Shown here: positions 5,094-43,159 of the stretch, one piece after another
How positions within the stretch are numbered: the stretch's first letter is position 1
How the letters are laid out: every line of letters starts with the position of its first letter
NCBI GenBank assembly: GCA_001784555.1
Contig: MFRM01000003.1
Span: 65,606-129,605, forward strand
DNA from: Candidatus Melainabacteria bacterium RIFCSPHIGHO2_02_FULL_34_12
Lineage (GTDB): Bacteria > Cyanobacteriota > Vampirovibrionia > 2-02-FULL-35-15
Reading direction: 5' to 3'
Length of the DNA stretch: 64,000 nucleotides
Notes under the pieces: model-generated
Database searches by the model: none
What the model was told of the DNA's origin: nothing
What the model saw: only the letters and a program-made list of their open reading frames with translations
Translations under genes and position numbers: made by a program

Positions 5094-6026
5094 ATGACAG
5101 GGGAAAATTCAAAAAAAAGTTTAATCTGGGTTTATCCACCAAATAAATGGATTTCGAATTGCAATAAGACATTTGTTTACGGGTGGACAAAACCAGGATG
5201 TAGGTTATATGCAGTCTGTAAAGGCAAAATTAAAAAGATAAAAGTATTTCCAAATGGAAACTTTGCACAAAAAATAAAACTACCACAGAAAAAAAATATT
5301 GTTCAGTTAGTTCAGGTGTTAAACGGAAAAGAAAAAACAATAACAAGATGTGTCATTGCGAGGGAGCAAAGCGACCGAAGCAATCCCGATCGATTTTCGC
5401 GAGGTAGATCGGGATTGCTTCGTCGGCACTTTGTGCCTCCTCGCAATGACATGGTCATCGTCATCGATCCCGGTCATGGTGGCAAAGAACATGGTACACA
5501 CTCACCAAAGGGTGTTCCTGAAAAAGTTTATAATTTACAAATTGCAAAAAACCTCGTACAGGCATTGCACACAACACCCCAACAATGGAAAATTTACCTC
5601 ACTCGTTCTACGGATAAATTTGTCTCTTTAAAAGATCGTGTCCGTTTTGCAAAAAATAAAAAATGTAATTTATTAATCTCAATTCACCACAATGCACTTC
5701 CAGACAATGAAGATCCACTTAAGCATAGAGGAGTCGGGATTTATTACACACATGATTTTGTAAAACCACTTGGAAAATCACTACTAGAAAGTATTTCAAA
5801 ATCTGTAAGGGCACGCCATGGCACGCCCTTACAAAAATACGGTTTGTATAAAAGAGATTTCGCACTTACAAAACCTGACTTTTGTCATGCAGTGTTAATT
5901 GAATGTGGATTTTTAATTCATCCGGTAGAAGGAGAAATTATTACACAAAAAAATACACAGAAAAAAATTGTAACCGGTGTAAAAAAAGCCTTATTTACTT
6001 TTTACCGTCGACAACCACTTAAGTGA
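5094..6026 (+). CDS. N-acetylmuramoyl-L-alanine amidase (Amidase_3) carrying three repeat-derived segments
   Basis: IDPGHGG, EK, SIHHNA and LIECGF zinc/catalytic motifs. Confidence 0.9.
   Translation: MTGENSKKSLIWVYPPNKWISNCNKTFVYGWTKPGCRLYAVCKGKIKKIKVFPNGNFAQKIKLPQKKNIVQLVQVLNGKEKTITRCVIAREQSDRSNPDRFSRGRSGLLRRHFVPPRNDMVIVIDPGHGGKEHGTHSPKGVPEKVYNLQIAKNLVQALHTTPQQWKIYLTRSTDKFVSLKDRVRFAKNKKCNLLISIHHNALPDNEDPLKHRGVGIYYTHDFVKPLGKSLLESISKSVRARHGTPLQKYGLYKRDFALTKPDFCHAVLIECGFLIHPVEGEIITQKNTQKKIVTGVKKALFTFYRRQPLK
5351..5451. mobile_element. family B 101-bp MITE-like element, in-frame in the amidase
   Basis: Terminal inverted repeats TGTCATTGCGAG / CTCGCAATGACA and inner pair GAAGCAATCCCGATC / GATCGGGATTGCTTC. 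Confidence 0.9.
5556..5584. repeat. degenerate family A copy in the amidase (VQALHTTPQQ)
   Basis: gtacaggcattgcacacaacaccccaaca aligns with gtagaggcgttgcgcgcaacgcctctac (32301), mostly by G>A changes. Confidence 0.6.
5804..5833. repeat. family A palindrome in the amidase (VRARHGTPLQ)
   Basis: tgtaagggcacgccatggcacgcccttaca. Confidence 0.88.
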
Positions 6027-6638
6027 ATAATGAATTAAAGTTTCAGAATCATCATGGTTTCCATTAGTTTTTGCAGTTTCAAAAGCTTGGCTTATTTCAT
6101 GTCCTGAATATCCAAGAGCTTGTAAAACAGAGCGAGCTTCATTGTGGAATTCACCGGTTCGTCCATTCGCCGTTTCACCATTCCGTTTATTTCCGGAATA
6201 TGCAATGGGTAAATGTTTCCAGTTTTTAATTTTTTCTTTTAGTTCTAGAATTAATCTGCTTGCGGTTTTTGTCCCTATTCCTTGTGCTTTGCTTAAAGCT
6301 GCAATATCTTCATTTAATATTGAATAAGTAATTTCACTTACAGTAAAACTGTTTAAAATATTTAAAGCTGTTTTTGGACCAACTCCAGATACACTAAAAA
6401 GTAAATTAAACAATTCTCTTTCAAGCAATGTAGGAAAACCAATCAAAGTCATCTGATCTTCTTTATGAATTAATGTTGTATAGACTGTTGTAGTGCTTCC
6501 GACCTTACCTAATAACTCAAGGGCAGAAAGACTGGTTTGTACTTCATAACCAATTCCATTAACATCCAGAATCACTTTTTCAGAGCCCTGAGGTTCTGTT
6601 ATTTTTTCTGTAATTATTCCTCTTAAGAACTGGTACAT
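5991..6638 (-). CDS. ruvA: Holliday junction branch migration protein RuvA
   Basis: LDVNGIGYEV, LIGF..LERELFNLLFSVSGVGPKTAL, GIGTKTASRLILELKEK. Confidence 0.97.
   Translation of the reverse strand: MYQFLRGIITEKITEPQGSEKVILDVNGIGYEVQTSLSALELLGKVGSTTTVYTTLIHKEDQMTLIGFPTLLERELFNLLFSVSGVGPKTALNILNSFTVSEITYSILNEDIAALSKAQGIGTKTASRLILELKEKIKNWKHLPIAYSGNKRNGETANGRTGEFHNEARSVLQALGYSGHEISQAFETAKTNGNHDDSETLIHYSLKWLSTVKSK
6151..6186. repeat. degenerate 8-bp periodic repeat in the RuvA linker (RNGETANGRTGE)
   Basis: tcaccggt tcgtccat tcgccgtt tcaccatt; its reverse complement resembles the CGGCGWAW octamer. Confidence 0.55.
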
Positions 6639-6751
6639 TTTTCACTCACTGGTATAATTAAAATTATAATTAGGAAGTTTAACATTCTTAGGCCAAATGA
6701 AGAACGGCCATAACGAAATAAAAAGTAAAATGAAAGGAAAATGATCATCAA

Positions 6752-7075
6752 ATGGCAAACGTAGGTGAAGTAACAGACGCAACTTTTGAAGCAGAAGTTC
6801 TTAAGGCAAAGTTGCCGGTATTGGTGGATTTCTGGGCACCTTGGTGCGGGCCCTGTAGAGCAGTTGCACCGGTAGTTGAAGAAATAGCTAATGAATACGA
6901 CGGAAAACTTAAAGTTTTAAAGTTAAATACCGATGAAAACCCCAGAACAGCCCAATCTTACAGAATTAGTGGCATTCCAAGCTTAATGGTTTTTAAAAAC
7001 GGTCAACCTGTGGAACAAGTAGTAGGCGCAGTTCCAAAATCTACCCTTTCCTCAGCCGTTGAAAAGCATATCTAA
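6752..7075 (+). CDS. trxA: thioredoxin
   Basis: [10 protein letters not shown] active site. Confidence 0.97.
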
Positions 7076-7153
7076 AAGTAATTCATTAAAATGAACAAAA
7101 ATATCGTAGTTACTTCTTTAATAAAAGAAACTCATTCGGTTAGGCAGAAATAG

Positions 7154-8167
7154 ATGTCAAAAACTCACCATACTTCTGAAGATCATAAAGCAAAAAATAA
7201 ACAAAGACTTAAAAACATATTAAGATTTTTAATTAGCATCATAGCCATATTTTGTCTGATAAAGTTTGGAAAAGTTGATATAAGAGTTGCTTTTAAATAT
7301 CTGCTAAAAGTTAATCCTGTTTATTTTACTCTTGCATATACAATGTATTTTATAACCATGTTAATAGCAGGTTTTAGATTTTATTTTTCTTCAAAAGCAC
7401 TCCATTTCCAAAAAAGTTATTTTCAATTGGTTCAGTTAAATTTTGTAGGAACATTTTTTAATAATTTTTTGCCTACGACTTTCGGCGGCGATGCACTAAG
7501 AAGCTATTACCTTAAGCGGGGCTCACACATAAGTATTTCAAAGGCCGTTGCATGCATAATTTATGAACGATATACAGGAGTAGTAATTTTATTCTGGCTG
7601 GCATCAGTTGCATTTCTGCTTCAGGATTTTGGAATTATTAGTAAATCAGAATGGGAATTGCCCCGTCAATTAGTTTTGTTTTCACATGCAAGTTCTTTAG
7701 TAACTATTTTTTTAATACCTTTTCTGCCTCAGATTACAAATACACTTCTCGGCAAAACAAACTGGATTTATAAAAAAGCGGTTGAACCGTTTCTTGTATA
7801 TTGGCACGATGTAAAATTAACTGTAAGAATACTTATCTTATCTGTTTGTTTACAAATTACTGTTATGCTTGCTCATTTACTTATTGCACTTTCACTAGGT
7901 ATTAAAATACCGCTTAGCTATTATCTGGTTTTTTATCCGCTTACTACCATTGCAGGCTTTTTAATACCTAGCTTAAACGGGCTTGGCATAAGAGAAGGTT
8001 CATATATATTTTTTCTGAAACATGTAAAAGTCCCCACAGAGCAGGGACTTGCATTTAGTATTTGCTGGCTTATTGTTTTGTTAATTACAAGCTTAATAGG
8101 AAGCATTATATATATGGTCGGTGATTTTAGAAAGGATAAACCTGTTGATATAGAACAAATAAATTGA
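7154..8167 (+). CDS. lysylphosphatidylglycerol synthase TM / UPF0104 flippase-like membrane protein
   Basis: FFNNFLPTTFGGDALR and PSLNGLGIREG motifs; multiple TM helices. Confidence 0.85.
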   Translation: MSKTHHTSEDHKAKNKQRLKNILRFLISIIAIFCLIKFGKVDIRVAFKYLLKVNPVYFTLAYTMYFITMLIAGFRFYFSSKALHFQKSYFQLVQLNFVGTFFNNFLPTTFGGDALRSYYLKRGSHISISKAVACIIYERYTGVVILFWLASVAFLLQDFGIISKSEWELPRQLVLFSHASSLVTIFLIPFLPQITNTLLGKTNWIYKKAVEPFLVYWHDVKLTVRILILSVCLQITVMLAHLLIALSLGIKIPLSYYLVFYPLTTIAGFLIPSLNGLGIREGSYIFFLKHVKVPTEQGLAFSICWLIVLLITSLIGSIIYMVGDFRKDKPVDIEQIN

Positions 8168-8169
8168 AC

Positions 8170-9924: not shown

Positions 9925-9949
9925 AGAATGAAAATTATATCGTTTTATA

Positions 9950-10062
9950 TGTCATTGCGAGGAGATCCCTCGCTTCACTCGGGACAGGCTCCGCAATCCC
10001 GAGCTATATACGCAAATTCGATCGAGATTGCTTCACCCTCCTTCGGAGGGCTAGCAATGACA
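9950..10062. mobile_element. family B element, intergenic, with a different hairpin nested in the left arm
   Basis: tgtcattgcgagg...gcaatcccgagc...atcgagattgcttc...ctagcaatgaca. Confidence 0.85.
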
Positions 10063-10121
10063 CATTTTTTTATCAATACTTATCATAATGTTCTAAAATG
10101 GTTAAGATTTAATAGATCCTC

Positions 10122-10736: not shown

Positions 10737-10751
10737 TCCGCTGGAGAGGAT

Positions 10752-13575: not shown

Positions 13576-13653
13576 ATATTTAGGTTCAAAATCACAAAAT
13601 GATACCCATGGTTACATGCATTTTAACCCTTGCAGAATATAATCACATGGCAA

Positions 13654-14226
13654 ATGGAATCAAATTATAATCCTGCGATTCACCATAGGCGATCAATTCG
13701 ATTAAAAGAATTTAATTATTCACAAAATGGTTATTATTTTATTACAATTTGCACAAAAAACAGAGAATGTTATTTGGGCAAAATTATAAATAAAAAAATG
13801 ACATTATCCAATGAAGGAAAAATTGTTTTGCAATATTGGAATGAATTACCAAATCACTTTTCAAATGTTGGTTTGGATGAATATGTAATAATGCCAAATC
13901 ATTTGCACGGAATTATTGTTATTGAAAACGATTTGAATAATGACAATCGTAATGCGCAATGTAGGGGCGGGGTTACCCCGCCCCTACAACATTACACATT
14001 GGGTCAAATCATTGCATATTTGAAATATCAAACAACAAAAACAATAAATCAATTTTATAAAACCCCCGGCAAACCATTCTGGCAACGCAATTATTATGAA
14101 CACATAATCCGTAATGAATCAGAATTAACCCGTATTCATGAATACATTAGAAATAATCCTATACAATGGGAATTTGACAGGAATAACCGAAAAAACATTG
14201 CTAGAATAAATAATCACAATATATGA
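13654..14226 (+). CDS. REP-associated HUH/Y1 tyrosine transposase (RAYT, IS200/TnpA superfamily)
   Basis: HHRRSIRL..YS..GYYFITIC, MPNHLHGII (HUH), WQRNYYEHIIR..YIRNNP..W (catalytic Tyr); stop overlaps the mnmA ATG. Confidence 0.93.
   Translation: MESNYNPAIHHRRSIRLKEFNYSQNGYYFITICTKNRECYLGKIINKKMTLSNEGKIVLQYWNELPNHFSNVGLDEYVIMPNHLHGIIVIENDLNNDNRNAQCRGGVTPPLQHYTLGQIIAYLKYQTTKTINQFYKTPGKPFWQRNYYEHIIRNESELTRIHEYIRNNPIQWEFDRNNRKNIARINNHNI
13960..13988. repeat. family A palindrome inside the RAYT gene (CRGGVTPPLQ)
   Basis: tgtaggggcggggttaccccgcccctaca, perfect stem. Confidence 0.95.
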
Positions 14227-15413
14227 CCCCGCAAATCCTAGAAAAACAAAAACTATACGAAAACTATTGGCCGTCACTAGACAGCAAAATTGCTATCTGC
14301 ATGAGCGGTGGAGTAGACAGCAGCGTCAGTGCTTATTTACTTGCTAAAAAAGGTTATAAAACTGTCGGACTTACCGGCTGGCTTTTTAAAGGATCCAATC
14401 GCTGCTGTGACGGCGGAATGATTGATGCAGCAAAGATCTCTGAGTTTATAGGCATAGAACATCTATCTAAAGATTTAAGAGAACTTTTTAAAAATCAAAT
14501 CGTAGATCATTTTATTTCTTCCTACGGTAGCGGATCCACACCGATTCCATGCATTACCTGTAACAATGTCATTAAATGGGGATCACTTATGGAATATGCA
14601 TTTAATGAATTAAATTGTACACATATTGCTACGGGTCATTATGCAAAACTGGTAAATGATAACGGATATTTTAAAATCGTCCGTCCAAAAGATTCTAAAA
14701 AAGATCAAACATTTATGCTCTGGGGATTAACACAGGATGTGCTTTCCAGAACAGTTTTTCCATTAGGAGATTTAACAAAAGATGAAGTCAGAGATGCTGC
14801 CAGAGACGGAAATTTGTTTTTAGCCGAAAAAGAAGAAAGTCAGGATATTTGTTTTGTCTCAGAAAAAGAAGGAACTCAGGGGTTCCTTGGAAAATTTCTT
14901 GAACAAAAAGAAGGATTTATTATTGAAAATAAAACCGGAAATGTTTTAGGAACACATAGCGGTACTCATAATTACACTATCGGTCAAAGAAAAGGCATGG
15001 GAATTGCTTATAGCGAACCTCTTTATGTAATAGATGTAGATGTAGAAAAAAATATTGTTTATGCAGGTACTAAAGAAGAATTAGAAGGATGTGAATTAAT
15101 TGCAAAGGATGTGAATTGGATTTATCCTATAATTGCGAGGAGGCACGAAGTACCGACGAAGCAATCTCGATCGAATTCAAAAGATACGCTCGGGACTGCT
15201 TCGGGGTTTTCAACCCCTCGCAGTGACACTATCCGTGTCATGGCAAAAATCAGATATAATTCAAAAACTTCACCTGCAACAATCTCACTCTTGGAAGATA
15301 ATAAAATAAAAATGGTCTTTGATGAACCACAGTCAGCAATTACTCCCGGACAGGCATGTGTGTTTTATGATGAGACGGATCAAATTCTTCTTGGCGGTGG
15401 GTGGATAACTTAG
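14223..15413 (+). CDS. mnmA: tRNA 2-thiouridine(34) synthase
   Basis: MSGGVDSS, PIPCITCN, ATGHYA, KDQT, ESQDICF, TIGQRKG, ITPGQ. Confidence 0.97.
   Translation: MTPQILEKQKLYENYWPSLDSKIAICMSGGVDSSVSAYLLAKKGYKTVGLTGWLFKGSNRCCDGGMIDAAKISEFIGIEHLSKDLRELFKNQIVDHFISSYGSGSTPIPCITCNNVIKWGSLMEYAFNELNCTHIATGHYAKLVNDNGYFKIVRPKDSKKDQTFMLWGLTQDVLSRTVFPLGDLTKDEVRDAARDGNLFLAEKEESQDICFVSEKEGTQGFLGKFLEQKEGFIIENKTGNVLGTHSGTHNYTIGQRKGMGIAYSEPLYVIDVDVEKNIVYAGTKEELEGCELIAKDVNWIYPIIARRHEVPTKQSRSNSKDTLGTASGFSTPRSDTIRVMAKIRYNSKTSPATISLLEDNKIKMVFDEPQSAITPGQACVFYDETDQILLGGGWIT
15128..15228. mobile_element. family B element in-frame in mnmA, opposite orientation to the amidase copy
   Basis: tataattgcgaggaggcacgaagtaccgacgaagcaatctcgatcg...cccctcgcagtgaca; encodes IIARRHEVPTKQSRSNSKDTLGTASGFSTPRSDT. 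Confidence 0.9.
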
Positions 15414-15415
15414 TA

Positions 15416-15454
15416 TGTCATTGCGAGCCGAACAAAGTGAGGCGTGGCAATCTC
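15416..15454. repeat. family B half-element between convergent mnmA and the Sua5-family gene
   Basis: tgtcattgcgagccgaacaaagtgaggcgtggcaatctc. Confidence 0.85.
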
Positions 15455-15475
15455 CAAACTTTTTTGATGTGTTTC

Positions 15476-17388: not shown

Positions 17389-17853
17389 ATGATTACTTTA
17401 ATCCAAAGAGTAACATCTGCAAAAGTAACCATCGAAAATAAGGTTACAGGCAATATAAAAAATGGGCTGCTTCTATATATAGGCTTTGAAGATGGAGACA
17501 ACTTAGAAAAAATAAAATGGTCCATTAATAAAATAATTAACCTTAGAATATTTGCAGATAAAGAAGACAAGATGAACCTTTCTCTTCTGGATATAAAAGG
17601 AGTAGGGGCGTATCGCGATACGCCCTTACTATTGGTGATTTCAAATTTCACTCTCCCGGCTGATTTAAATGAATCAGGCAGAAGACCTTCATTTACAAAA
17701 TCAGCCAGCCCGGAAATAGCAGAAAATCTCTATAATCAGTTTATAGATGAGTGTAAAAATCAAAATATAAATGTAGCTCAAGGAAAATTCGGCGCCATGA
17801 TGGATATTGAATCTGTAAATGATGGACCGGTTAATTTCATATTAAAAAGATGA
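17389..17853 (+). CDS. dtd: D-aminoacyl-tRNA deacylase
   Basis: IQRV..A.V, NLRIF.D...KMNLS, SNFTL, GRRPSF, GKFGAMM, NDGPV. Confidence 0.96.
   Translation: MITLIQRVTSAKVTIENKVTGNIKNGLLLYIGFEDGDNLEKIKWSINKIINLRIFADKEDKMNLSLLDIKGVGAYRDTPLLLVISNFTLPADLNESGRRPSFTKSASPEIAENLYNQFIDECKNQNINVAQGKFGAMMDIESVNDGPVNFILKR
17601..17630. repeat. family A palindrome in dtd (VGAYRDTPL)
   Basis: agtaggggcgtatcgcgatacgcccttact. Confidence 0.92.
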
Positions 17854-17856
17854 GCT

Positions 17857-17870
17857 GTCATTGCAATGAC
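17857..17870. repeat. collapsed family B remnant (fused termini)
   Basis: gtcattgcaatgac equals left end GTCATTGC plus right end GCAATGAC sharing GC. Confidence 0.65.
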
Positions 17871-17888
17871 GTATAATAACTTATAACT

Positions 17889-18929
17889 ATGAAACGAATT
17901 AAAATTGGCTCACTCGAAATAAACTCATACGTCTACATCCCTCCCATGGCAGGAGTAACAGATCTGGCTTTTAGAAAAATGGTAAGAATGTTTGATAAAG
18001 AGACTTTAATTGCTACTGAAATGGTCAGCTCAAAAGCTCTTATGTTTAATCCAAATCAAAGTCTCATGAAACTGAGTCCTGATGAACATCCTGTAGGCAT
18101 ACAACTTTTTGGACATGAACCAGAAGTTATGGCAAAAGCAGCAGTACTTGCAGAAGAACAAGGAGCTGATTTTTTAGATATAAATATGGGTTGTCCTGCT
18201 CCGAAAATTACAAAAGGAAAAGATGGAGCAGCTCTTATGAGGGAACCAGAGCTGGCTGTAGAAATTATTAAAGCGGTAATTAATGCGGTTAAAATTCCAG
18301 TTACTGTAAAGATGAGACTTGGCTGGGATGAATGTCAGAAAAATTCTCCAGATCTAGCTAAGAGACTTGAAGATATTGGTGTCTGTGCTTTTACTATACA
18401 CGGAAGAACCCGTGAACAAGGCTATACAGGAAATGCTGACTGGGAAGCAATTTCTGTAGTAAAAAAATCAACTTCAGTTCCGATATTTGGGAATGGTGAT
18501 GTAAGAACTCCACAAGACGCAAAAAAATTAATCGAGATAACAGAATGTGATGGTGTAGCAATTGCTAGAGCAACCATGGGCTCACCCTGGCTTTCAATGC
18601 AGATAAACCAGTTTTTAAATACCGGAAGTTTTAGTCCCGAACCAAGTCTTTCAGAAAAGTTAGACATTGCTTTAGCTCATCTTGATGAACTTATAAAAAT
18701 AAAAGGTGAATATGTAGGTATACGCGAAGGCAGGCGTCATTTGATTAATTACACAAAAGGAATGCCAAACTCTGCACAGATACGGGCTCAGATAGGACAA
18801 ATAAATACAAGAGAAGAAGCTTATAATTTATTATCTAGGTTAAAAGAAGAGCTTACAAATTTGGTAAAAAGAATTAACTTAGTTAAGAACACTGAAATGT
18901 CTGAATTTGACTTAATTTCAACAAATTAG
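17889..18929 (+). CDS. dusB: tRNA dihydrouridine synthase
   Basis: PMAGVTD, TEMVS, DINMGCP, TIHGRT, GNGDV. Confidence 0.94.
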   Translation: MKRIKIGSLEINSYVYIPPMAGVTDLAFRKMVRMFDKETLIATEMVSSKALMFNPNQSLMKLSPDEHPVGIQLFGHEPEVMAKAAVLAEEQGADFLDINMGCPAPKITKGKDGAALMREPELAVEIIKAVINAVKIPVTVKMRLGWDECQKNSPDLAKRLEDIGVCAFTIHGRTREQGYTGNADWEAISVVKKSTSVPIFGNGDVRTPQDAKKLIEITECDGVAIARATMGSPWLSMQINQFLNTGSFSPEPSLSEKLDIALAHLDELIKIKGEYVGIREGRRHLINYTKGMPNSAQIRAQIGQINTREEAYNLLSRLKEELTNLVKRINLVKNTEMSEFDLISTN

Positions 18930-19002: not shown

Positions 19003-19560
19003 ATGGCAGGTCAAAAAAATTATTTTGCAGTTTTTGTACTAGGAACAGACAGTATCGGAATAGTCTCTGATATTACTAAGGCCCTGTTTGAGTTAGGCGC
19101 AAACATAAATGATTCTTCCCACACCATAATAGGAAATGAATTTGCAATGCTTCTTCTTATTTCTACATCTCCAAGCGGTACAGTTGAAAATATAAAAAGT
19201 GCATTTAAAGAAATCAGCGAAAAAAGAAATTTAACTGTTCATGCTCATCAGCTTAAAGAAGAAGACATTTACAGAAAGACAACTGACCCGGGACAGCTTT
19301 GTGTGATTCATTTATACGGCGCAGATAAACCAGGAATTGTTTATCAAGTGACCGATCTCCTGGCAAAAAATAAAGTAAATATTACAGATCTAAGCACAAG
19401 AAGATTTGGAAATGATACAAACCCAATTTATATAATGTATCTGGAAGCTGAAGTACCATATGATGTCGACACCAGAAAACTCGGAAGCGAATTAAATAAA
19501 ATAGCATCTAAATTAAACGTAGAAATTAAGTATGAGTTAGAAGAAGTCGCTAGTTTATAA
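19003..19560 (+). CDS. tandem ACT-domain protein (GcvR-like)
   Basis: GTDSIGIVS..LFELGANI.DS and GADKPGIVY..LA...VNITDL. Confidence 0.88.
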   Translation: MAGQKNYFAVFVLGTDSIGIVSDITKALFELGANINDSSHTIIGNEFAMLLLISTSPSGTVENIKSAFKEISEKRNLTVHAHQLKEEDIYRKTTDPGQLCVIHLYGADKPGIVYQVTDLLAKNKVNITDLSTRRFGNDTNPIYIMYLEAEVPYDVDTRKLGSELNKIASKLNVEIKYELEEVASL

Positions 19561-19661
19561 TGTCATTGCGAGCCCGCCTTTGGCGGGCGAAGCAATCTCG
19601 ATCGATTTTGCATAGATAGTTCGGGGTTGCTTCGTCGGGTAAAACCCTCCTCGCAATGACA
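19561..19661. mobile_element. family B 101-bp element, intergenic
   Basis: tgtcattgcgagcccgcctttggcgggcgaagcaatctcgatcg...ttgcttcgtcgggtaaaaccctcctcgcaatgaca. Confidence 0.92.
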
Positions 19662-19678
19662 TGATAAATTTAATCTTT

Positions 19679-20197
19679 ATGGCAATACTACAGGTTCATC
19701 AATTTCCCGATCCAATCTTAAAAAAAATCTGTGCTCCTGTTACAGATTTCGATTCAAAATTAAACTCATTTGTAAATGACTTCACAGAAACCCTGCAAAG
19801 TCATAATTTTTGCGTGGGGCTGGCTGCTCCACAGGTAGGAAATCTTCAAAGAATAATTGCAATAGATGTTTCAAGAGCCAGAAAACCACAGCTGGGAAAC
19901 GGACTTTTAATTTTAATAAATCCAGTGATTCTTGAATCTTCAAATTTTAAATTTGTAAGGGAAGGATGTCTTAGCATTCCGGATTTCACAGCAAACGTAA
20001 AACGCGCCATGAAGATTACAGTGCAATATCAAGAATATTGTAGAGACGCGCCGCGGCGCGTCTCTGATAAGGTATTGGAAACAACCAATTTTGAAGCACA
20101 TGCCATTCAGCATGAAATGGATCATCTGGATGGAATTCTTTTTCTGGACAGAATTACAAATCCAGCCAGTGATTTGTTTAGAAGAAAGAGAGCTTAG
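19679..20197 (+). CDS. def: peptide deformylase
   Basis: GLAAPQVG, EGCLS, QHEMDHLDG. The ORF-track start at 19661 comes from the repeat end. Confidence 0.96.
   Translation: MAILQVHQFPDPILKKICAPVTDFDSKLNSFVNDFTETLQSHNFCVGLAAPQVGNLQRIIAIDVSRARKPQLGNGLLILINPVILESSNFKFVREGCLSIPDFTANVKRAMKITVQYQEYCRDAPRRVSDKVLETTNFEAHAIQHEMDHLDGILFLDRITNPASDLFRRKRA
20039..20066. repeat. family A palindrome in def (CRDAPRRVS)
   Basis: tgtagagacgcgccgcggcgcgtctctg. Confidence 0.92.
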
Positions 20198-24299: not shown

Positions 24300-25718
24300 A
24301 TGAAACAAGTCTACATAGAAACCTTTGGATGTCAGATGAATAAAGCAGATACAGAGCATATGCTTGGACTTCTGGATGAAATTGATTATAAACATACAGA
24401 AAATATTGAAGAAGCTAATCTTGTTTTGTTTAATACTTGTACAATTCGTGAAACAGCAAATCATAAATTTTACAGTCAGCTTGGCATTGTTGGAAAAATG
24501 AAAAAGCAAAGATGTAGAGACGGGGTGACCCCGTCTTTACTGCTTGGAGTAGGGGGTTGTGCAGCCCAGGATAAAAAAGAATGGCTGATTAAAAACTTTC
24601 CTTATGTAGATATTGTATTTGGCACAAATAATATTCAAAATTTACCTGAGCTTGTAAAAAAAGCTGAGAGCGGTAAAAAAGTCTGTGAGATAGAAGAAGA
24701 GCTTCCGTATGAGTTGCCTGAACTGCCTGTAATCCGTCAGACTAAGGTTAGCGCATGGGTAAATGTAATTCTTGGATGTAATTTTAATTGTACTTATTGC
24801 ATAGTTCCCAGTGTTCGCGGAAGAGAAAAAAGCAGAAAGCCTGAAGATATTTTAAAAGAAGTTGAAAGGCTTGCAGAAGAAGGATTTAAGGAAGTCACGT
24901 TACTTGGGCAGAATGTAACTGCTTATGGTTATGATCTTTCATCAAACTACTCAAAAGAAAAAGCCACATTCGGTCACATACCAGATGATCCTGAATATTC
25001 ACTTGCAAAGCTTATTAGATATGTTCATGACGTAGATGGAATTGAAAGAATAAGATTTTTAACAGGGCATCCATTTCATGTAACTGACGAGCTCATAGAT
25101 ACAGTAGCAGAGCTTCCTAAAGCATGCGAATACTTTCACATTCCCATGCAATCTGGAGATAACACAGTTTTAAAGCGAATGGCTAGAGTTTATACTGTAG
25201 AAAAATATAAAGAGATGGTAGAGAAAATTAGAAATAAAATGCCAAGTAGAGGCGTATTGCAATACGCCCATGCTGCAATCACAAGCGATTTTATAGTAGG
25301 TTTTCCTGGTGAGACAGAGGAGCAGTTTTTAAATACAGTAAAAATTGTTAAAGAAATTGGATTTGATGGGTGCAATACAGCAGCATATTCACCCAGACCC
25401 GATACCCCAAGCGCTACATGGGATAAACAAATTCCTGAGGAAGAAAAAAATGCAAGACTTAGATATTTAAACTCTGTTGTAAATGAAGTAGTAGGGATTA
25501 AAAATAAAGATCTTTTGGATACAATTCAGGAAGTTTTAGTAGAAGGTACAAGTAAGCGAAATGAAAACAATTTGAGCGGCAGAACGCGGGGAAATACAAT
25601 TGTTAATTTTGATCCTACAATGGCGGGTTTTAAACCCGCCATTGTAGGCACATTGGTAAATATAAAAATAACAAAGGTAAAACGATGGGCTCTTGATGGT
25701 GAGGTGGTAGGCAATTAA
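24300..25718 (+). CDS. miaB: tRNA-i6A37 methylthiotransferase
   Basis: TFGCQMN, NTCTIRE, GCNFNCTYCIVP (radical SAM), DFIVGFPGET, C-terminal TRAM domain. Confidence 0.96.
   Translation: MKQVYIETFGCQMNKADTEHMLGLLDEIDYKHTENIEEANLVLFNTCTIRETANHKFYSQLGIVGKMKKQRCRDGVTPSLLLGVGGCAAQDKKEWLIKNFPYVDIVFGTNNIQNLPELVKKAESGKKVCEIEEELPYELPELPVIRQTKVSAWVNVILGCNFNCTYCIVPSVRGREKSRKPEDILKEVERLAEEGFKEVTLLGQNVTAYGYDLSSNYSKEKATFGHIPDDPEYSLAKLIRYVHDVDGIERIRFLTGHPFHVTDELIDTVAELPKACEYFHIPMQSGDNTVLKRMARVYTVEKYKEMVEKIRNKMPSRGVLQYAHAAITSDFIVGFPGETEEQFLNTVKIVKEIGFDGCNTAAYSPRPDTPSATWDKQIPEEEKNARLRYLNSVVNEVVGIKNKDLLDTIQEVLVEGTSKRNENNLSGRTRGNTIVNFDPTMAGFKPAIVGTLVNIKITKVKRWALDGEVVGN
24513..24540. repeat. family A palindrome in miaB, first copy (CRDGVTPSL)
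   Basis: tgtagagacggggtgaccccgtctttac. Confidence 0.9.
25246..25273. repeat. family A palindrome in miaB, second copy (SRGVLQYAHA)
   Basis: gtagaggcgtattgcaatacgcccatgc; same core as 38356. Confidence 0.88.
25614..25648. repeat. 35-bp perfect palindrome in the miaB TRAM domain, with reversed CTAC...GTAG ends
   Basis: cctacaatggcgggttt-t-aaacccgccattgtagg (17-bp arms). Confidence 0.9.
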
Positions 25719-26989
25719 TGCAAAATAATACTAATGAATCTACGCTGGTAAAGACGCCCCAACGGGGCGTTTCCATAATTGGGGAAGGTGAAAAATATCT
25801 TGAAAAATACTTCAAATCCATTGATAACATTGAACAACATAACTTCAATAAAGTCCTAACAGCATTAACAGAAAATAAACTTGGAGAACAACATTTTAGC
25901 TGGGTTACAGGATATGGGCATGATGATATTGGCAGGCAAAAAATCGATCAGATTTTTGCTCAGGTTTTTAATGCAGAAAGTGCTGTAGTACGTCCACAGT
26001 TTGTGTCTGGTACTCATACGATTTCATGTGTTTTATTTGGTTGTTTAAGACCAGGTGATGAATTGGTTTCAGTTGCAGGAGAGCCTTACGATACTCTGCA
26101 TAAAGTAATCGGGATACATGGTGAACATAAAGGTTCTTTAAAAGATTTTGGTGTTTCATATAAAGAAATTCCTTTAAAAGATAATTTAAATGTTGATTTA
26201 GATGCAATCCCTAACTATGTTTCAGCTAATACCAAAATGGTCTTTATTCAAAGATCTAAAGGTTATCACTGGAGAAAATCCCTGACCATAAAAGAAATTG
26301 AAAAAATAATTTTAAAAGTAAAAGAAATAAATAAAAATATAATTTGTTTTGTAGACAATTGTTTTGGTGAATTTACTGAAGAGTTTGAACCTACCGATGT
26401 AGGAGCAGATATTACATGCGGTTCACTTATTAAAAATATAGGCGGCGGCATTGTACCTGCAGGCGGTTATATTGCCGGTAAAAAAGAGCTTGTGCATCTA
26501 TCCGCAGAAAGACTTACAGCACCTGGAATAGGAGAAAAAGGTGGATGCATGTTTGATTTAAGCAGAGTAATTTTACAGGGATTGTTTTTTGCACCACATG
26601 TAGTAGCTCAAATTTTGAAAGGGATTTCTCTTGTAAGTTATTTTTTCAAAGAAAAAGGTTATGAAGTAAATCCTTTGCCTGATGAAATAAAAACCGATAT
26701 AGTTGTTGCTATAAAACTAAAAGACAAAAAACTCCTTGAAAGCATCTGTAAAACTGTTCAGGCTAATAGTCCTGTGAACAGTCATCTTACGCCTGTTCCT
26801 TGCAAGCTTCCCGGCTATGAGGATGAAGTAATAATGGCAGGTGGAACTTTTATAGAAGGCTCTACAATTGAACTTTCATGTGATGCTCCAATGCGTGAAC
26901 CTTATATTCTATACTGGCAGGGTGGATTAAATTATTTGCATACAAAGCATGTACTAACCAAAATTGTCATTGCGAGCCGAACGCAGTGA
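25718..26989 (+). CDS. PLP-dependent methionine gamma-lyase family protein (YnbB / aluminium-resistance type)
   Basis: TGYGHDDIGR, VRPQFVSGTH, IQRSKGY, GSLIKNIGGG, MAGGTFIEGSTIELS.D.P. Confidence 0.9.
   Translation: MQNNTNESTLVKTPQRGVSIIGEGEKYLEKYFKSIDNIEQHNFNKVLTALTENKLGEQHFSWVTGYGHDDIGRQKIDQIFAQVFNAESAVVRPQFVSGTHTISCVLFGCLRPGDELVSVAGEPYDTLHKVIGIHGEHKGSLKDFGVSYKEIPLKDNLNVDLDAIPNYVSANTKMVFIQRSKGYHWRKSLTIKEIEKIILKVKEINKNIICFVDNCFGEFTEEFEPTDVGADITCGSLIKNIGGGIVPAGGYIAGKKELVHLSAERLTAPGIGEKGGCMFDLSRVILQGLFFAPHVVAQILKGISLVSYFFKEKGYEVNPLPDEIKTDIVVAIKLKDKKLLESICKTVQANSPVNSHLTPVPCKLPGYEDEVIMAGGTFIEGSTIELSCDAPMREPYILYWQGGLNYLHTKHVLTKIVIASRTQ
25748..25776. repeat. family A palindrome near the N-terminus of the YnbB-like gene (VKTPQRGVS)
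   Basis: gtaaagacgccccaacggggcgtttccat. Confidence 0.8.
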
Positions 26990-27092
26990 GGTGTGGCAAT
27001 CTCACACTGTGATTACGTTTCATGAGATTTATTGTTACCGTTATTTACATCGTAAGATTGCTTCGTCAGGTAAAACCTTCCTCGCAATGACA
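26965..27092. mobile_element. family B element (128 bp) supplying the C-terminus and stop of the YnbB-like gene
   Basis: tgtcattgcgagccgaacgcagtgaggtgtggcaatctc...gattgcttcgtcaggtaaaaccttcctcgcaatgaca. Confidence 0.9.
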
Positions 27093-36718: not shown

Positions 36719-36787
36719 TGTCACCCTGAGAGTTAGCGAAGGGCCTCATTACGTTCAAAGGTCCTTCGCCTTTGGCTCAGGACGACA
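36719..36787. mobile_element. family C MITE-like element (TGTCACCCTGAG...CTCAGGACGACA)
   Basis: Imperfect terminal inverted repeats plus inner pair CGAAGGGCC / GGTCCTTCG, same architecture as family B. Confidence 0.7.
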
Positions 36788-36802: not shown

Positions 36803-36803
36803 G

Positions 36804-37211: not shown

Positions 37212-38174
37212 TTACATAATCAATCCATTCAAATACTCGTCAAAATCAAATTCTACGATGTCGTCTATTTGTTCACCTGTTCCTATAAATTTTACAGGTA
37301 GAGAAAGTTTGTTCATAATATTTAAAATCACACCGCCCTTTGCAGAACTGTCGAGCTTAGAAAGAATAATGCCGGTAAGTCCAATGGCTTTTGAAAATAA
37401 TTCTGCCTGAACAATTGCATTTTGACCAATCGTGGCATCCAGTACGATTAGCTTCTCAAGATTTGGAGCCATGCCAAGGCATGGCTTTACAAATTTTTCG
37501 ATTATAGAATTTATTTTCCGCAATTCATCCATGAGATTAATCTGTGAATGTAATCTCCCTGCAGTATCAATGAGGACAACATTAAAATTTTCATTTTTTG
37601 CTTTCTTAAGCGCAGCATAAACTACAGCATCTGGTTTTTTAACCTCAGGAGGTGAAAATATTTCTGCTTCTGCTCGCTTTGCCCATACATCAAGCTGTTC
37701 TCCTGCAGCTGCACGAAAGGTATCTCCTGCCACGATTAAAACTTTTTGTTTGCCATCTTTAAATCTCCTTGCAAGTTTGCCTATAGATGTGGTTTTACCG
37801 GAGCCGTTTACACCGACGATTAAATAAATTCCGTTTTGAAGGTGGGGTCCCGGGACTTCACCTTCGGGTAATTGTGATTTTATTGTTTCCTTTATTTTTT
37901 CTTGTAATTTATTTTTTTCAATCTGTAAGGGCGTGCCATGGACTGCCCCTACTTTTATATTCTTCTTTAATTCATTAATAATTTTTTCAGACAGCTCAAG
38001 ACCTACATCAGCTTTAATGAATTTTTCTAAAAGACTGTCATAGAATTCTTCATCAACATTTATGTTTATATTCTCTGTCGTAGGGACGTAGCGAGCTACG
38101 TCCCTACGGGTTTTTGATAATGCTTCTTTTATCTTGAATATATTATTTTCCAACCACTTCTTCATCTTAAGCAT
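37212..38174 (-). CDS. ftsY: signal recognition particle receptor FtsY
   Basis: ADVG, VGVNGSGKTTSIGKLA, GDTFRAAA, DTAGRLH, DATIGQN, SKLDSSAKGG, GTGE. Confidence 0.96.
   Translation of the reverse strand: MLKMKKWLENNIFKIKEALSKTRRDVARYVPTTENININVDEEFYDSLLEKFIKADVGLELSEKIINELKKNIKVGAVHGTPLQIEKNKLQEKIKETIKSQLPEGEVPGPHLQNGIYLIVGVNGSGKTTSIGKLARRFKDGKQKVLIVAGDTFRAAAGEQLDVWAKRAEAEIFSPPEVKKPDAVVYAALKKAKNENFNVVLIDTAGRLHSQINLMDELRKINSIIEKFVKPCLGMAPNLEKLIVLDATIGQNAIVQAELFSKAIGLTGIILSKLDSSAKGGVILNIMNKLSLPVKFIGTGEQIDDIVEFDFDEYLNGLIM
37463..37491. repeat. family A palindrome in ftsY (VKPCLGMAP)
   Basis: Minus strand tgtaaagccatgccttggcatggctccaa. Confidence 0.82.
37837..37866. repeat. GTCCCGGGAC-core palindrome in ftsY (EGEVPGPHLQ)
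   Basis: gaaggtggggtcccgggacttcaccttc; related copy at 38488. Confidence 0.8.
37924..37953. repeat. family A palindrome in ftsY (VGAVHGTPLQ)
   Basis: tgtaagggcgtgccatggactgcccctact. Confidence 0.87.
38079..38108. repeat. family A perfect palindrome in ftsY (RRDVARYVPT)
   Basis: cgtagggacgtagcgagctacgtccctacg. Confidence 0.95.
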
Positions 38175-38187
38175 CTATAATAACATT

Positions 38188-39657: not shown

Positions 39658-41308
39658 ACAAAAAATTCATAAAGAAATCAAAAAAGCCTTAAACGGTGAA
39701 TCTGATTTGGTTTATTTAGAACGTACAAAACTAAAAGAACATGGTGATGTTTCAACAAATATTGCAATGGTACTGGCAAAAAAGCAAAAAAGAAATCCAC
39801 TTGATATTGCAAATGAGCTAAAAGAAAAAATAAAAGCAGATGGCAGTTTAATCTCACATATAGAAGTAGCAAAACCTGGTTTTGTAAATTTTGTAGTCGG
39901 AGATTATGCACTTAGTGAGTCTTTAGTTGAGGTTATTAATATTGGAGATAAATTTGGCTTTGCGCCTGAAAAATCAAAAGAAGAAACATTAGTGGAATAT
40001 GTTTCTGCAAATCCAACCGGAGATTTACACATCGGTCATGGAAGACAGGCAGTGATTGGAAGTTGTTTAGTAAATCTTTTAAGCGCAGCAGGATATGACG
40101 TAAAAAGTGAGTTTTACATAAATGATTTTGGCGAACAAATACAAAACCTCTCAGACACTGCATGGGCAATACATTGTAAATTAAACGGAGAAAATGTCCA
40201 GTGGAAAGAAGATTTTTATCCTGAAGATTTATTATTGCCGTACGTGAAGAAAATTGTAGGGGCTTACTGCAGTAAGCCCCAGCAGCAATTGACGAAAGAA
40301 ATCCTTGGACAAGAAATAAAAGATTTAATTTTAAAATCACAGGAAGAGCTGCTTTCTTCTCTAAAGATAAGTTTTGATAAATGGCATAGTGAAACAGATC
40401 TGCATACTCGTGGAGAAGTTAAAAATACACTTAAAAAACTAAAAGAGTCTGGCATTACATACGAGCATGAAGGAGCCATATGGCTTAAGGCACAAGAACT
40501 TGGAGATGTAAGAGACAGAGTGCTAGTAAGATCTGACGGGCGAAGTACTTATTTGCTGGCAGACGTTGCATATCATATTAATAAATTTAAACGCAGTACA
40601 AAACTAATTACCCTATGGGGTGCAGATCACCATGGACAGGAAGTTGGACTAAAAGGTGCTTTAAAGGTTCTTAAATATGATGAAAACAAGCTTGAAATAA
40701 TTTTTGTGCAGATGGTTAGCTTAAAAAAAGAAGGACAGGAAATAAAAATGTCCAAGCGCGCCGGGACAGTAGTTACTGTAGATGAAGTATTAAATGAAGT
40801 AGGCCCCGATGCTTTTAGATATTTTCTGGTTGAAAGTCATCCTAACCATAGAATGATTTTTGATATTGATTTAGCTAAAAAACAAGATAAAGATAATCCT
40901 GTTTATTACATCCAGTATGCCCATGCAAGATGTTGCAGTATTTTTAGACAAATTACAGATGACATTAAAAAAGAGGAGGTGCTAAAAAAGTGCACGATAA
41001 GCCCTGATGTTTTTATGTATTTATTTAAAGCTAATAATCAGGAGTACTCAGCCACTAAATCTCTTATTTTACGGATTCTTGATTTTCCTGAAGAAGTTCT
41101 AAATTCGGCTGAGAGCAGATCGCCTAGCAGAATTGCTAATTATTTAAAAGAACTGGCTACAGATTTCCATCAATTTTATACAGTTTGTCGTGTAATATCA
41201 AAAGATATAAATTTAACCGAAGCCAGATTAGGTCTGGTCGAAACAGTAAAAATAACAATTGCAAACGGTTTAAAAATACTAGGTATCAATGCACCTGAAT
41301 CAATGTAA
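39647..41308 (+). CDS. argS: arginine--tRNA ligase
   Basis: HGD.STNIAM, PGFVNF, VEYVSANPTGDLHIGH, WGADHHG, KMSKRAG, NPVYYIQYAHAR, APESM. Confidence 0.97.
   Translation: MSYKQKIHKEIKKALNGESDLVYLERTKLKEHGDVSTNIAMVLAKKQKRNPLDIANELKEKIKADGSLISHIEVAKPGFVNFVVGDYALSESLVEVINIGDKFGFAPEKSKEETLVEYVSANPTGDLHIGHGRQAVIGSCLVNLLSAAGYDVKSEFYINDFGEQIQNLSDTAWAIHCKLNGENVQWKEDFYPEDLLLPYVKKIVGAYCSKPQQQLTKEILGQEIKDLILKSQEELLSSLKISFDKWHSETDLHTRGEVKNTLKKLKESGITYEHEGAIWLKAQELGDVRDRVLVRSDGRSTYLLADVAYHINKFKRSTKLITLWGADHHGQEVGLKGALKVLKYDENKLEIIFVQMVSLKKEGQEIKMSKRAGTVVTVDEVLNEVGPDAFRYFLVESHPNHRMIFDIDLAKKQDKDNPVYYIQYAHARCCSIFRQITDDIKKEEVLKKCTISPDVFMYLFKANNQEYSATKSLILRILDFPEEVLNSAESRSPSRIANYLKELATDFHQFYTVCRVISKDINLTEARLGLVETVKITIANGLKILGINAPESM
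40255..40284. repeat. family A palindrome in argS (VGAYCSKPQQ)
   Basis: tgtaggggcttactgcagtaagccccagca. Confidence 0.9.
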
Positions 41309-41313
41309 AACAA

Positions 41314-41343
41314 TGTAGAGGCGTAGTGCATTATGCCTCTACA
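41314..41343. repeat. family A palindrome, intergenic after argS
   Basis: tgtagaggcgtagtgcattatgcctctaca. Confidence 0.88.
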
Positions 41344-41364
41344 AACAAATGCTAGAATTAACAT

Positions 41365-41661
41365 ATGCCTGAAACACCATACTGTCCGCTCTTAAGCATT
41401 AACAAAGAAGTTCCTGTTTTATGTCAGGAAGAACTTTGTATGTGGTATGTTAAGCAACTTAAACTTTGTTCCATTACAGTACAGGCATATGCAAACGCTT
41501 TAAATCTGCAAATGCCACAAAGACCCACAGGTTCTCAGGGAGAAACTAAACCTACACAGCAAGCCACACCTCAACAACAAGTTAAACAAAATTTAACCAA
41601 GCCTCAGTCTAAAGATCAGCCAAAAGCTGCAAATCCTTTTGCACTTGACGATTTAGACTAA
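41365..41661 (+). CDS. hypothetical protein with an N-terminal four-Cys motif and Gln/Pro-rich tail
   Basis: YCPLLS..LC..ELCMWY...LCSI. Confidence 0.7.
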   Translation: MPETPYCPLLSINKEVPVLCQEELCMWYVKQLKLCSITVQAYANALNLQMPQRPTGSQGETKPTQQATPQQQVKQNLTKPQSKDQPKAANPFALDDLD

Positions 41662-41784
41662 AGAACATAAAAATACGTCATTTGTAGGGCAAATAGTTTA
41701 TTAAATATTTGAATTCTAAGGATCTAATATAAGATAAGATCGTCATAAAATAAAGATCCTTAAAAAATTGATAAAGGGAACAAA

Positions 41785-42267
41785 ATGGGTTTTGCTGCAA
41801 GAAAAGAGAATACAAGTCTTGAAGGTTTTGAAGAACTTTGGGAAAGTCCAGATCAATCTCAATCAGTTGATTCTATTTCAAAACAAATTCATTCAATTTT
41901 AAAAGTTTTAGTTGATGAAAGAATTGCATTAAAGCAGGAAAACCAACTGGTTAATGAATTAAAACAACATATGCATTCTCTTGAATCGCAGATTCAAAAA
42001 TTAAATTGGCAATTAGGACAAAGAGAAAAAGAACTTTCAAGCTTATATACTGAATTCCACCAGGTAAAAAGCCAAAAAGAATCCATGGAGAAACAAACAG
42101 AAACATATAAAGAACTACAAAAAGAAAACCGTGAAATAAGACAACTAGCTGAACAACTTTCAAATCAAATTCTTCATGAAAAAGCAAAGAACGAGCAGTT
42201 AATTGAGCTTTTAAAAGAATTGCAAAATCCGGAATTAGTAAAAATTACTAAAAAACTTGGGTTATAA
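41785..42267 (+). CDS. hypothetical coiled-coil protein
   Basis: Q/E/K/L heptads; AAGGGA upstream. Confidence 0.75.
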   Translation: MGFAARKENTSLEGFEELWESPDQSQSVDSISKQIHSILKVLVDERIALKQENQLVNELKQHMHSLESQIQKLNWQLGQREKELSSLYTEFHQVKSQKESMEKQTETYKELQKENREIRQLAEQLSNQILHEKAKNEQLIELLKELQNPELVKITKKLGL

Positions 42268-42290
42268 AGCGCCTCCAAGGAAGGCGCTTT
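42266..42290. terminator. probable bidirectional hairpin terminator
   Basis: aaagcgcct-ccaagga-aggcgcttt between convergent genes. Confidence 0.6.
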
Positions 42291-42301
42291 GATTTCGCTC
42301 G

Positions 42302-43159
42302 TTAATATCCCGGAAGCAAGCTTCCGGATTTTACACTTCGCTCAAATATAAACAAACATCTATCTAATTTAGAATAATCTTTTACAATTTCAAAACTGTT
42401 TAATCCTTTTGATTTCAGCAGTTTTATTAAATCATTCACAAGAGATGGATCTATTTCTAATGCAATCAAACGTTTATTGTCATTGCGAGGAGCAGTTATC
42501 AATTCAAATATCCTCTCATAATATATTAATCCTGAATTATTTTCTTTTGAGCCGACAAGTGCAATCTTAGGTTCATGAAGCACAACCTCGGGTCTTAATT
42601 TCTTCATTTCGCTTGATTTCACGTAAGGTGGATTTGAGATTATTAGATCAAAATTATTTCTATTTAATATTTCTTCCATGCCATTAGAAAATACATCACA
42701 TACCTCAAATTTTATTTTCTCCGAAACATTGTTTTTCTCAGCATTTTCTCTGGCTAAATTTATAATGTCTTCATTTACATCTATTGCAATGATTTTTATA
42801 TCCGGAATTAATCTGGCAAGTGCAATTGCAATGATGCCAGAGCCAGTGCCTATATCCAATGCCGTAGGGACATGCCGCGGCATGTCCCTACTATTGATTA
42901 ACCTTCTCACCGTTTCTTCAACTAGAATTTCAGTCTCAGGTCTAGGTATCAAAACATTTTTATCGACTTTTACTTCAAAATCCATAAAATAAGCTTTTCC
43001 AAGAATATACTGAATAGGGATTCTTGTTTTTATTCTTTCTGAAATAATTTTTTTTATTTGTTCAGAATCTTTTAATTCCATAAGTAATATGGAAATTTCT
43101 TTTTTTGCTTCCTGAGGCTCTATTCCTGCAGAAATTAGTTTTTCAATTAATTCTTCCAT
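42302..43159 (-). CDS. prmC: release factor glutamine methyltransferase
   Basis: PIQYILG, VLIPRPETE, LDIGTGSG, ISNPPY, HEPKIAL. Confidence 0.95.
   Translation of the reverse strand: MEELIEKLISAGIEPQEAKKEISILLMELKDSEQIKKIISERIKTRIPIQYILGKAYFMDFEVKVDKNVLIPRPETEILVEETVRRLINSRDMPRHVPTALDIGTGSGIIAIALARLIPDIKIIAIDVNEDIINLARENAEKNNVSEKIKFEVCDVFSNGMEEILNRNNFDLIISNPPYVKSSEMKKLRPEVVLHEPKIALVGSKENNSGLIYYERIFELITAPRNDNKRLIALEIDPSLVNDLIKLLKSKGLNSFEIVKDYSKLDRCLFIFERSVKSGSLLPGY
42479..42493. repeat. family B terminal remnant in prmC (APRND)
   Basis: gtcattgcgaggagc. Confidence 0.7.
42864..42891. repeat. family A perfect palindrome in prmC (SRDMPRHVPT)
   Basis: gtagggacatgccgcggcatgtccctac. Confidence 0.95.

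Follow-up and report, generated by a model that had tools for sequence, protein, structure and literature searches.

A TGTC-tagged, head-to-head palindromic repeat in a Melainabacteria-group genome and its probable link to a small GIY-YIG nuclease gene

Repetitive extragenic palindromic (REP) sequences with a CGTC tag, as described in the portion of Di Nocera 2013 (PMC3733652) available, have a tag that often reads TGTC, stems starting with A-T and a CCA-like 3-nt tail; their head-to-head dimers predominate, some copies are intragenic, and that portion reports no transposase gene alongside them. The superfamily takes in two Rickettsia palindromic elements (RPEs) of R. conorii, RPE-6 (CGTC-1) and RPE-4 (CGTC-4), as well as the Neisseria repeat dRS3 (same portion of Di Nocera 2013, PMC3733652). 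According to the accessible part of Chenal 2025 (PMC11893778), the 94-aa GIY-YIG nuclease SsnA has the NTS form of dRS3 as its target, binding it as single-stranded DNA (ssDNA) and cutting upstream of it; Ssn nucleases belong to CDD family cd10448 and cut only ssDNA beside their hairpin, and Ssn-related motifs (SRMs) border ssn homologues across many phyla, with Rickettsia and Wolbachia among the groups represented. The same part of that paper likens NTS-ssnA-NTS to an insertion sequence, with mobility raised there solely as a hypothesis. The enzyme that spreads RPEs and CGTC-tagged REPs has been an open question since 2000-2013. Here we describe a repeat of about 100 bp, referred to below as the ATTGC type, in a 64-kb stretch of Candidatus Melainabacteria bacterium RIFCSPHIGHO2_02_FULL_34_12 (hereafter the window), for which the explanation we favor as a whole, and regard as fairly probable, is a head-to-head dimer of (C/T)GTC-tagged units of the REP/SRM kind whose short copies and spread are linked to a GIY-YIG nuclease.

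The window corresponds to G000:C3:65606-129605, G000 being the source assembly (2.11 Mb, 34% G+C, 26 contigs). With at most one mismatch, the 12-mer TGTCATTGCGAG had 12 matches in the window against 0.11 expected and a maximum of 2 across 100 shuffles; matches with two mismatches were discarded as mostly chance (~79 expected per orientation), and the one-mismatch threshold together with the inner motif was used instead. Sequence reading gave five full copies along with a solo unit, a fused-end form, and a remnant (Table 1), and the window matches of a covariance model built on 51 copies from across phyla were precisely the five full loci (E ≤ 7.5e-7; next E = 0.019). Both approaches agree with an initial annotation of this DNA that had placed full copies at 5351, 9950, 15128, 19561, and 26965. 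It had also recognized a terminal remnant near 42479, in an open reading frame (ORF) noted as prmC, and fused ends at 17857; both are present, the latter as the 14-mer GTCATTGCAATGAC at 17858-17871, which occurs exactly once more in G000 against ~0.008 expected by our own arithmetic. The half copy it had proposed at 15416 is a real unit, and is in fact one complete solo unit. None of the copies in the window contains an ORF of its own, in keeping with the earlier description of a modular, non-autonomous element. An Rfam scan of the window yielded no family at the gathering score, and five loci searched returned just a chance miRNA match (E 0.95).

A full copy consists of two units placed head-to-head, each running from a tag, (T/C)GTC, through ATTGC-GAG, a variable module, and CGAA-GCAAT to a C-rich tail. 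The two units of a copy pair with one another via two stems, the outer one TGTCATTGCGAG/CTCGCAATGACA and the inner one CGAAGCAATC.../...GATTGCTTCG, around a variable center, and within one unit a 5-bp base stem (ATTGC/GCAAT) is followed by a purine-rich GAG/CGAA internal loop and then a hairpin with a stem of 2-7 bp. Folded as ssDNA, the five full window copies had z-scores between -3.6 and -9.3, the copy at 19561 forming a clean four-way junction. In the alignment of the 51 cross-phylum copies, 85.4% of cells were paired, vs. 80.1% after shuffling (a value of 85.4% was reached by 0 of 500 shuffles) and at most 42.8% with partners slid. The outer stem was nearly invariant (96.4% paired), double changes indicative of covariation occurred in the inner-stem extension and the left side hairpin, and no covariation was found between the two tags of a dimer (alignment columns 1/168).

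Among 89 modules in G000, 72 are distinct, small hairpins of their own are frequent, and stems of 4 bp or more come in 22 different versions; perfect stems of at least 5 bp occur in 20% of modules vs. 3% after shuffling, which bears out the earlier remark that the small side hairpins differ over conserved stems. Rickettsiaceae genomes that are AT-rich have AT-rich side stems with an unaltered core. The distal hairpin is thus conserved in shape and not in sequence. GTC is preceded by T in 77 of the 89 G000 units, by C in 10, and by A in 2; among 215 units from other phyla, the preceding base is T in 172 and C in 31. The three nucleotides after GCAAT in G000 units include CCC (33), CTC (36), and CTT (16), and CCA follows GCAAT in at least 44 of the 215 units from other phyla (recounted from the table). 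Long-type copies have an AT-rich module of ~70 bp and slightly longer flanking repeats.

Relative to the CGTC-tagged REPs as described in the available portion of the source, the ATTGC type shares the unpaired CGTC/TGTC tag, the A-T stem start, the dominance of head-to-head dimers, intragenic copies, the absence of an adjacent transposase gene, and possibly the short C-rich tail. It differs in that those repeats have continuous 8-9 bp stems with 4-5 nt loops, whereas ATTGC units mostly pair with each other; this comparison is by description, and the ATTGC type may be among the four published families. With the Ssn/SRM systems, as far as the accessible text describes them, it shares oriented HGTC-tagged hairpins on both sides of a single-domain GIY-YIG gene of ~94 aa and an occurrence in many phyla, and it differs in having the 5-bp base stem, the GAG/CGAA internal loop, and the variable distal hairpin. 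The element thus appears to be a structurally distinct variant of the SRM/CGTC-REP kind that acts in an RPE-like manner in genes, and published supplements or figures may already list it.

The evidence for a nuclease partner comes from another contig of G000, where a 393-bp copy (G000:C19:172461-172852) with ordinary left and right units holds a 95-aa ORF (G000:C19:172517-172801) in its central loop. The ORF encodes a GIY-YIG domain as its single domain (PF01541, E 4.6e-16), and the one solved structure related to it by sequence is 1zg2 (UPF0213, E 2e-4). Among 16 close homologues examined, 15 lie between tagged units, 12 of these of the ATTGC type. In families f1 and f10, all nine close homologues (52-66% identity; one a pseudogene) stand between ATTGC-type left and right units, and three more (56-60% identity) sit inside sibling tagged dimers, two of which are of the canonical ATTCC type. 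Genes from other phyla are embedded likewise, namely two from Tisiphia and one from Patescibacteria (53-57% identity), and two Chloroflexus genes (56-62% identity) adjoin copies; from G000 to Chloroflexus, Patescibacteria, and a Rickettsiaceae symbiont, nuclease identity is 53-62% and the ATTGC core is always present. An embedded Patescibacteria gene (G043:C15:9685-9960, L224) contains one in-frame TAA, reflecting either a pseudogene or stop-codon reassignment. Distant GIY-YIG paralogues were not flanked by the units. One distant paralogue in G000 itself (G000:C5:182349-182576, L203) has a tRNA gene directly upstream of it and a different palindromic repeat at its side.

Presence of the gene and presence of the repeat also tend to go together. 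Among the relatives, a close homologue was found in 8 of 14 with the element vs. 2 of 27 without it; the figures for family f6 are 18 of 24 positive and 8 of 24 negative genomes, and four of five genomes from other phyla have one. Nuclease genes of family f6 have either ATTGC-type units or sibling stems such as ATTCTGAG and ACCCTGAA on their flanks. Sibling cores that border GIY-YIG genes in this family comprise ATTCTGAG, ATTCAGAG, and ACCCTGAA; the sibling-type copy in the window (36719-36787) has a ACCCTGAG/CTCAGG core. The inner-stem extension (CTCGAGCG ... CGATCGGG) is identical in the nuclease-bearing and the short G000 copies, which fits the short copies as internal-deletion derivatives. 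A literature search found no paper joining GIY-YIG with Rickettsia palindromic elements, and a search by terminal sequence returned, among the matches listed, only unrelated studies, apparently through chance oligonucleotide matches.

Several observations weigh against the nuclease-linked explanation. The association counts exaggerate significance, since they draw on related and hence non-independent genomes, and the eight ATTGC-negative f6 genomes that have a homologue have it beside sibling repeat types. Some genomes rich in copies, namely G001, G003, G070, G201, and a Bradyrhizobium (G045, 45/47 half hits), are without a close homologue, and in the Bradyrhizobium genome no homologue of the nuclease was found at all. 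In G000 the gene is single-copy and syntenic with that of G005, and it therefore looks more vertically inherited, possibly domesticated, than like an active transposon. Most G000 copies appear to be old, judging by a median pairwise identity of 0.64 over 1035 pairs. The degenerate SRM search motif that has been published matches 0 of 90 ATTGC-type units in G000. To our knowledge, moreover, GIY-YIG enzymes act as hydrolases and are not known to carry out strand transfer.

The published SRM motif has five matches in G000, four of which are of the ATTCC type. G000 holds about six canonical dimers resembling NTS/dRS3 (TGTC-ATTCCC...GGGAAT-CCAG), at C3:240806, C7:53649, C19:164610, C20:53720, C21:14244, and C15:27923, and its canonical units match the NTS consensus at 27 of 28 positions.

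Given the flanking and co-occurrence data, we infer that the nuclease mobilizes the repeats. In this scheme the nuclease would recognize the unit as a hairpin in ssDNA and nick next to the tag, as published for SsnA on NTS, and host repair or recombination would afterwards spread or remove copies. [quoted passage not shown] Selection would then retain only harmless insertions, which are those between convergent genes and those that fall in linkers or surface loops and have a hydrophilic frame read. A classical MITE moved by a DDE transposase differs in that a target-site duplication is expected; across 46 ATTGC-type copies we found no target-site duplication, no flank consensus, and no palindromic flanks or outward extension of the outer stem. 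A stronger version, which we put forward tentatively and consider doubtful at present, is that the 95-aa GIY-YIG ssDNA nuclease gene between inverted units is itself a minimal autonomous element, mobile both inside genomes and from phylum to phylum, with the ~100-bp copies as its MITE-like derivatives. If this version is true, Ssn-type GIY-YIG proteins would be the long-sought mobilizer behind CGTC-tagged REPs and at least some RPEs, and would define a class of bacterial transposable element powered by a hydrolytic nuclease instead of a transposase. What this locus adds is a further hairpin type that differs in structure but shares the GIY-YIG partner, one that the published search motif missed; short and nuclease-bearing copies that share ends within the same genomes; and a division of the unit into invariant parts (tag, stem base, tail) and a part conserved in shape only (the distal hairpin). 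This division predicts what the nuclease reads, and it makes the mobility question directly testable.

One alternative is a REPIN-like element moved by a RAYT, that is, by a Y1 (HUH) transposase such as the one encoded in the window (13630-14226). The ATTGC type resembles REPINs in that both have tagged hairpin units in inverted pairs, no target duplication, and a small single-copy partner gene with largely vertical inheritance, and G000 has Y1-like genes, one of them 0.9 kb from the MnmA copy, in a position upstream of MnmA that is kept in three other genera. REPIN-RAYT systems differ, however, in the tag (GTAG, not GTC) and in the partner, which is an HUH Y1 enzyme and not a candidate GIY-YIG hydrolase. 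No ATTGC-type element stood beside the Y1 gene at any of 17 loci, and all 15 Y1 genes examined (8 genomes; loci L148-L167) instead carry a GTAG-tagged perfect palindrome inside the ORF, between the HUH and Tyr motifs. The stem of the intragenic palindrome varies by gene and matches dispersed GTAG repeat subfamilies of the genome, so that each Y1 paralogue may be tied to its own GTAG repeat. No PF01797 match was found in Tisiphia (G044, ~180 copies), Bradyrhizobium (G045), or G005, and in family f6 a Y1 gene was present in 1 of 6 element-positive vs. 7 of 15 element-negative genomes. The available portion of Di Nocera 2013 (PMC3733652) likewise reports no transposase next to CGTC repeats. We therefore consider a RAYT origin very improbable, and on the flanking result, the GTAG pairing, and the absence from copy-rich genomes we reject the Y1/RAYT as mobilizer of the ATTGC type. 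The initial annotation had held that no mobilizer is visible in the window and had suggested a look for genes consistently flanked by the repeat, such as small nucleases or Y1 transposases. Its first point stands, as the Y1 gene in the window goes with GTAG repeats and the likely partner is the GIY-YIG gene on contig C19, and of the two gene types only GIY-YIG genes are flanked at the loci examined.

The GTAG-tagged REP palindromes of G000 fall into several stem subfamilies with 5-15 perfect copies each (e.g., G000:C3:83210, 97909, and 103965, or window ~17605, 32304, and 38360). They probably correspond to the other repeat group, family A, of the initial annotation.

The ATTGC-type repeat is not lineage-specific, and its core recurs in many bacterial phyla. 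The half-unit pattern was present in 14 of 41 relatives, among them 10 of the 11 other genomes of the G000 family, and in 36 of 201 sampled genomes of the phylum. A scan of named genomes gave at least 122 loci with the same architecture throughout and locus G+C from 25% to 70%; the groups represented among the matches listed were Chloroflexota, Desulfobacterota, Patescibacteria, Cyanobacteria, Bacteroidota, Alphaproteobacteria including Bradyrhizobium, Rickettsiales, Planctomycetota, Omnitrophota, and others. The Tisiphia genome had 180/180 half hits and a 0.9-Mb Patescibacteria genome 12/12, and the ATTGC type was present in 21 of 61 genomes of the family to which the Tisiphia genome belongs. 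One module is common to G000 copies and a low-GC Candidatus Caenarcanales record.

Within G000, the unit pattern was found 89-90 times and the full-copy pattern 46 times, with 37 dimers vs. 17 solo units in the pattern tally. The covariance model, scored on 150 of 343 first-look candidates, placed at least 45 distinct loci at E ≤ 0.01, giving the genome-wide count that the initial annotation had called for. Thirteen of the 46 copies are read through (ORF open for at least 40 codons on either side), in the amidase, MnmA, and 11 further ORFs, all 11 with Pfam domains: an RlmD/TrmA-like methyltransferase, MetH, a radical-SAM protein, an AIRS-domain protein, QueA, a chorismate-binding enzyme, RsmG, a CoA transferase, an agmatine-deiminase-type enzyme, an IF-2B-family protein, and a glutamine amidotransferase. 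This in-gene share in G000 (28%) differs from the 2% of NTS given for N. meningitidis in the accessible part of Chenal 2025 (PMC11893778). The length minus 2 is divisible by 3 in 11 of the 13 in-gene copies vs. 11 of the 33 others, and 12 of the 13 are entered in the VIA[RS] frame. The in-gene copies thus keep the reading frame, and G000 offers 13 natural insertions of 23-40 residues tolerated by housekeeping enzymes. The amidase and MnmA peptides quoted in the initial annotation are both correct by translation. Its statement that the element is open in both orientations holds for most 101-bp copies. On the + strand, two of three frames are open in copies 5351 and 15128 and just one in copy 19561; on the - strand, two are open in copies 5351 and 19561 and just one in copy 15128.

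In-frame insertion in either orientation into housekeeping genes by ~100-bp palindromes is shared with RPEs, as had been proposed. The likeness does not extend to the published models: the ATTGC type matches no RPE1 or NCBIfam model, and its host belongs to the Melainabacteria group. A search of G000 with TIGR01045 (RPE1) returned nothing, and Pfam and NCBIfam searches of the translated copies gave no relevant match, with no family at E ≤ 1 for nine translated frames.

The protein hosts were compared with their orthologues, of which MnmA was found in all 15 genomes searched. In an alignment of 14, nine are without an insert in the loop after DVNW, and G000, G007, and G006 each bear the ATTGC-type element there, with different modules and slightly different junctions. 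In the amidase linker the element is present in G000 and G003 at the DNA level, and G001 resembles one or two copies in translation only; other inserts at this position are a GTAG palindrome in G006 and another repeat in G004. DNA-level inspection covered the MnmA loop in 11 of 14 genomes and the amidase linker in 4 of 8. From these alignments, the repeat-derived segment is not ancestral protein sequence in either enzyme, and both loops are permissive sites that were hit repeatedly or are exchanging copies. The two possibilities that would have spoken against the initial annotation, a segment shared by repeat-free orthologues or unexpressed pseudogenes, did not overturn it: the MnmA orthologues are mostly without the insert, and the in-gene copies stay in frame. 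At this MnmA loop, G001 (L133) has a tandem 16-nt repeat encoding HISTSAHQ repeats and G005 (L134) another palindromic insert. In the metagenomic data, a contig of run X5 covers 14829-15446, which includes the MnmA copy, with zero differences; a joint in run X2 (15128>15242) was not counted as an empty MnmA allele, as one side has just 29 letters and ambiguous letters lie between.

The placement of the remaining copies bears on the idea that the repeat mainly serves its host, either as a bidirectional 3'-end hairpin (terminator or mRNA stabilizer) or as ssDNA cleavage sites controlling incoming or replicating DNA, as proposed for Neisseria NTS. Among the 32 intergenic copies that could be classified, 20 have convergent neighbors, where they often occupy the entire gap, 10 have tandem neighbors, and 2 have divergent ones, compared with genome-wide gap counts of 239, 804, and 282, which rest on crude ORF calls. 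An invariant core across phyla, a nuclease gene that is single-copy and syntenic in G000 and G005, and the NTS/SsnA effect on transformation shown in the accessible part of Chenal 2025 (PMC11893778) would all suit such a role. Convergent placement is, however, equally explicable by selection against promoter insertions, no T-run followed the element in the copies inspected, and the 13 copies within coding sequence, the nearly identical pair at unrelated loci described below, and the patchy occurrence within genera (5 of 26 genomes in g14, 9 of 14 in g34) argue against it. We consider a primarily host-serving repeat unlikely, though less so than the transposase alternative, and retain the nuclease-linked dimer as the preferred explanation.

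Copies in several states of decay, together with the low median identity and the occupation of the same protein loops in several genera, could also be read as inert relics of an ancient burst that now change just by decay, internal deletion, and gene conversion. Internal deletions account for the decay states, as ATTGC and GCAAT are each present twice as direct repeats; G000 has the minimal GTCATTGCAATGAC form in two exact copies as well as two single-hairpin forms. Against a burst of relics, two pairs of copies share 99% and 95% identity although their flanks are unrelated, the first being the copy at 9950 and, in opposite orientation, G000:C23:7147-7259; copy number among close relatives in family f1 ranges from 0 to 107 half hits, and the MnmA-loop copies of G000, G007, and G006 differ in modules and junctions. 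A repeat without any present mobilization is thus very improbable in our estimation.

Table 1. Copies of the ATTGC-type repeat and associated features in the 64-kb window (window coordinates).
Feature	Position	Strand	Remarks
Full copy, 101 bp	5351..5451		In-frame in amidase ORF 5094-6026 (+), in the linker ahead of the Amidase_3 domain; model E 2e-16
Full copy, 113 bp	9950..10062		Intergenic, divergent ORFs on either side; 99% identical to G000:C23:7147-7259 (opposite orientation)
Full copy, 101 bp, decayed termini	15128..15228		In-frame in MnmA ORF 14223-15413 (+), between the PRC-barrel and C-terminal barrel domains
Solo unit	15416..15455	+	Tag, ATTGCGAG, module, GCAATC, tail; begins 2 nt past the MnmA stop
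Minimal fused-end form TGTCATTGCAATGACG	17856..17871		Best read as a deletion between internal ATTGC/GCAAT repeats
Full copy, 101 bp	19561..19661		Fills the gap exactly from the stop of ORF 19003-19560 to the ATG of ORF 19661-20197; four-way-junction fold
Long-type full copy, 128 bp	26965..27092		AT-rich central module; gives ORF 25718-26989 its last 8 codons and stop
Terminal remnant	42478..42493	+	12-mer plus GAGC; within ORF 42302-43159 (-), translated APRND
Sibling-type copy, TGTC-ACCCTGAG ... CTCAGG-GACA	36719..36787		Architecture shared, stem core differs; model E 0.019
Y1/RAYT-like gene	13630..14226	+	Just upstream of MnmA; GTAG palindrome at 13960-13988; no TGTC units alongside; outside the ATTGC family

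DNA matching the window was found in nine listed sequencing runs, all of them DNA runs, and no RNA run was among those listed. In four metagenome runs, many contigs match the copy at 5351 and end exactly at 5351/5352, 5385/5387, 5413, and 5450, which are element or unit boundaries. In run X5 (window 17836-18081), the contig of a divergent relative has 212 other letters in place of 244 bp around the fused-end form, with many substitutions nearby. Tandem direct arrays of single units, with a period of ~46-57 bp, occur beside full copies and GIY-YIG genes at L012, L098 (Chloroflexus sp.), L206 (G007), and L211 (G040).

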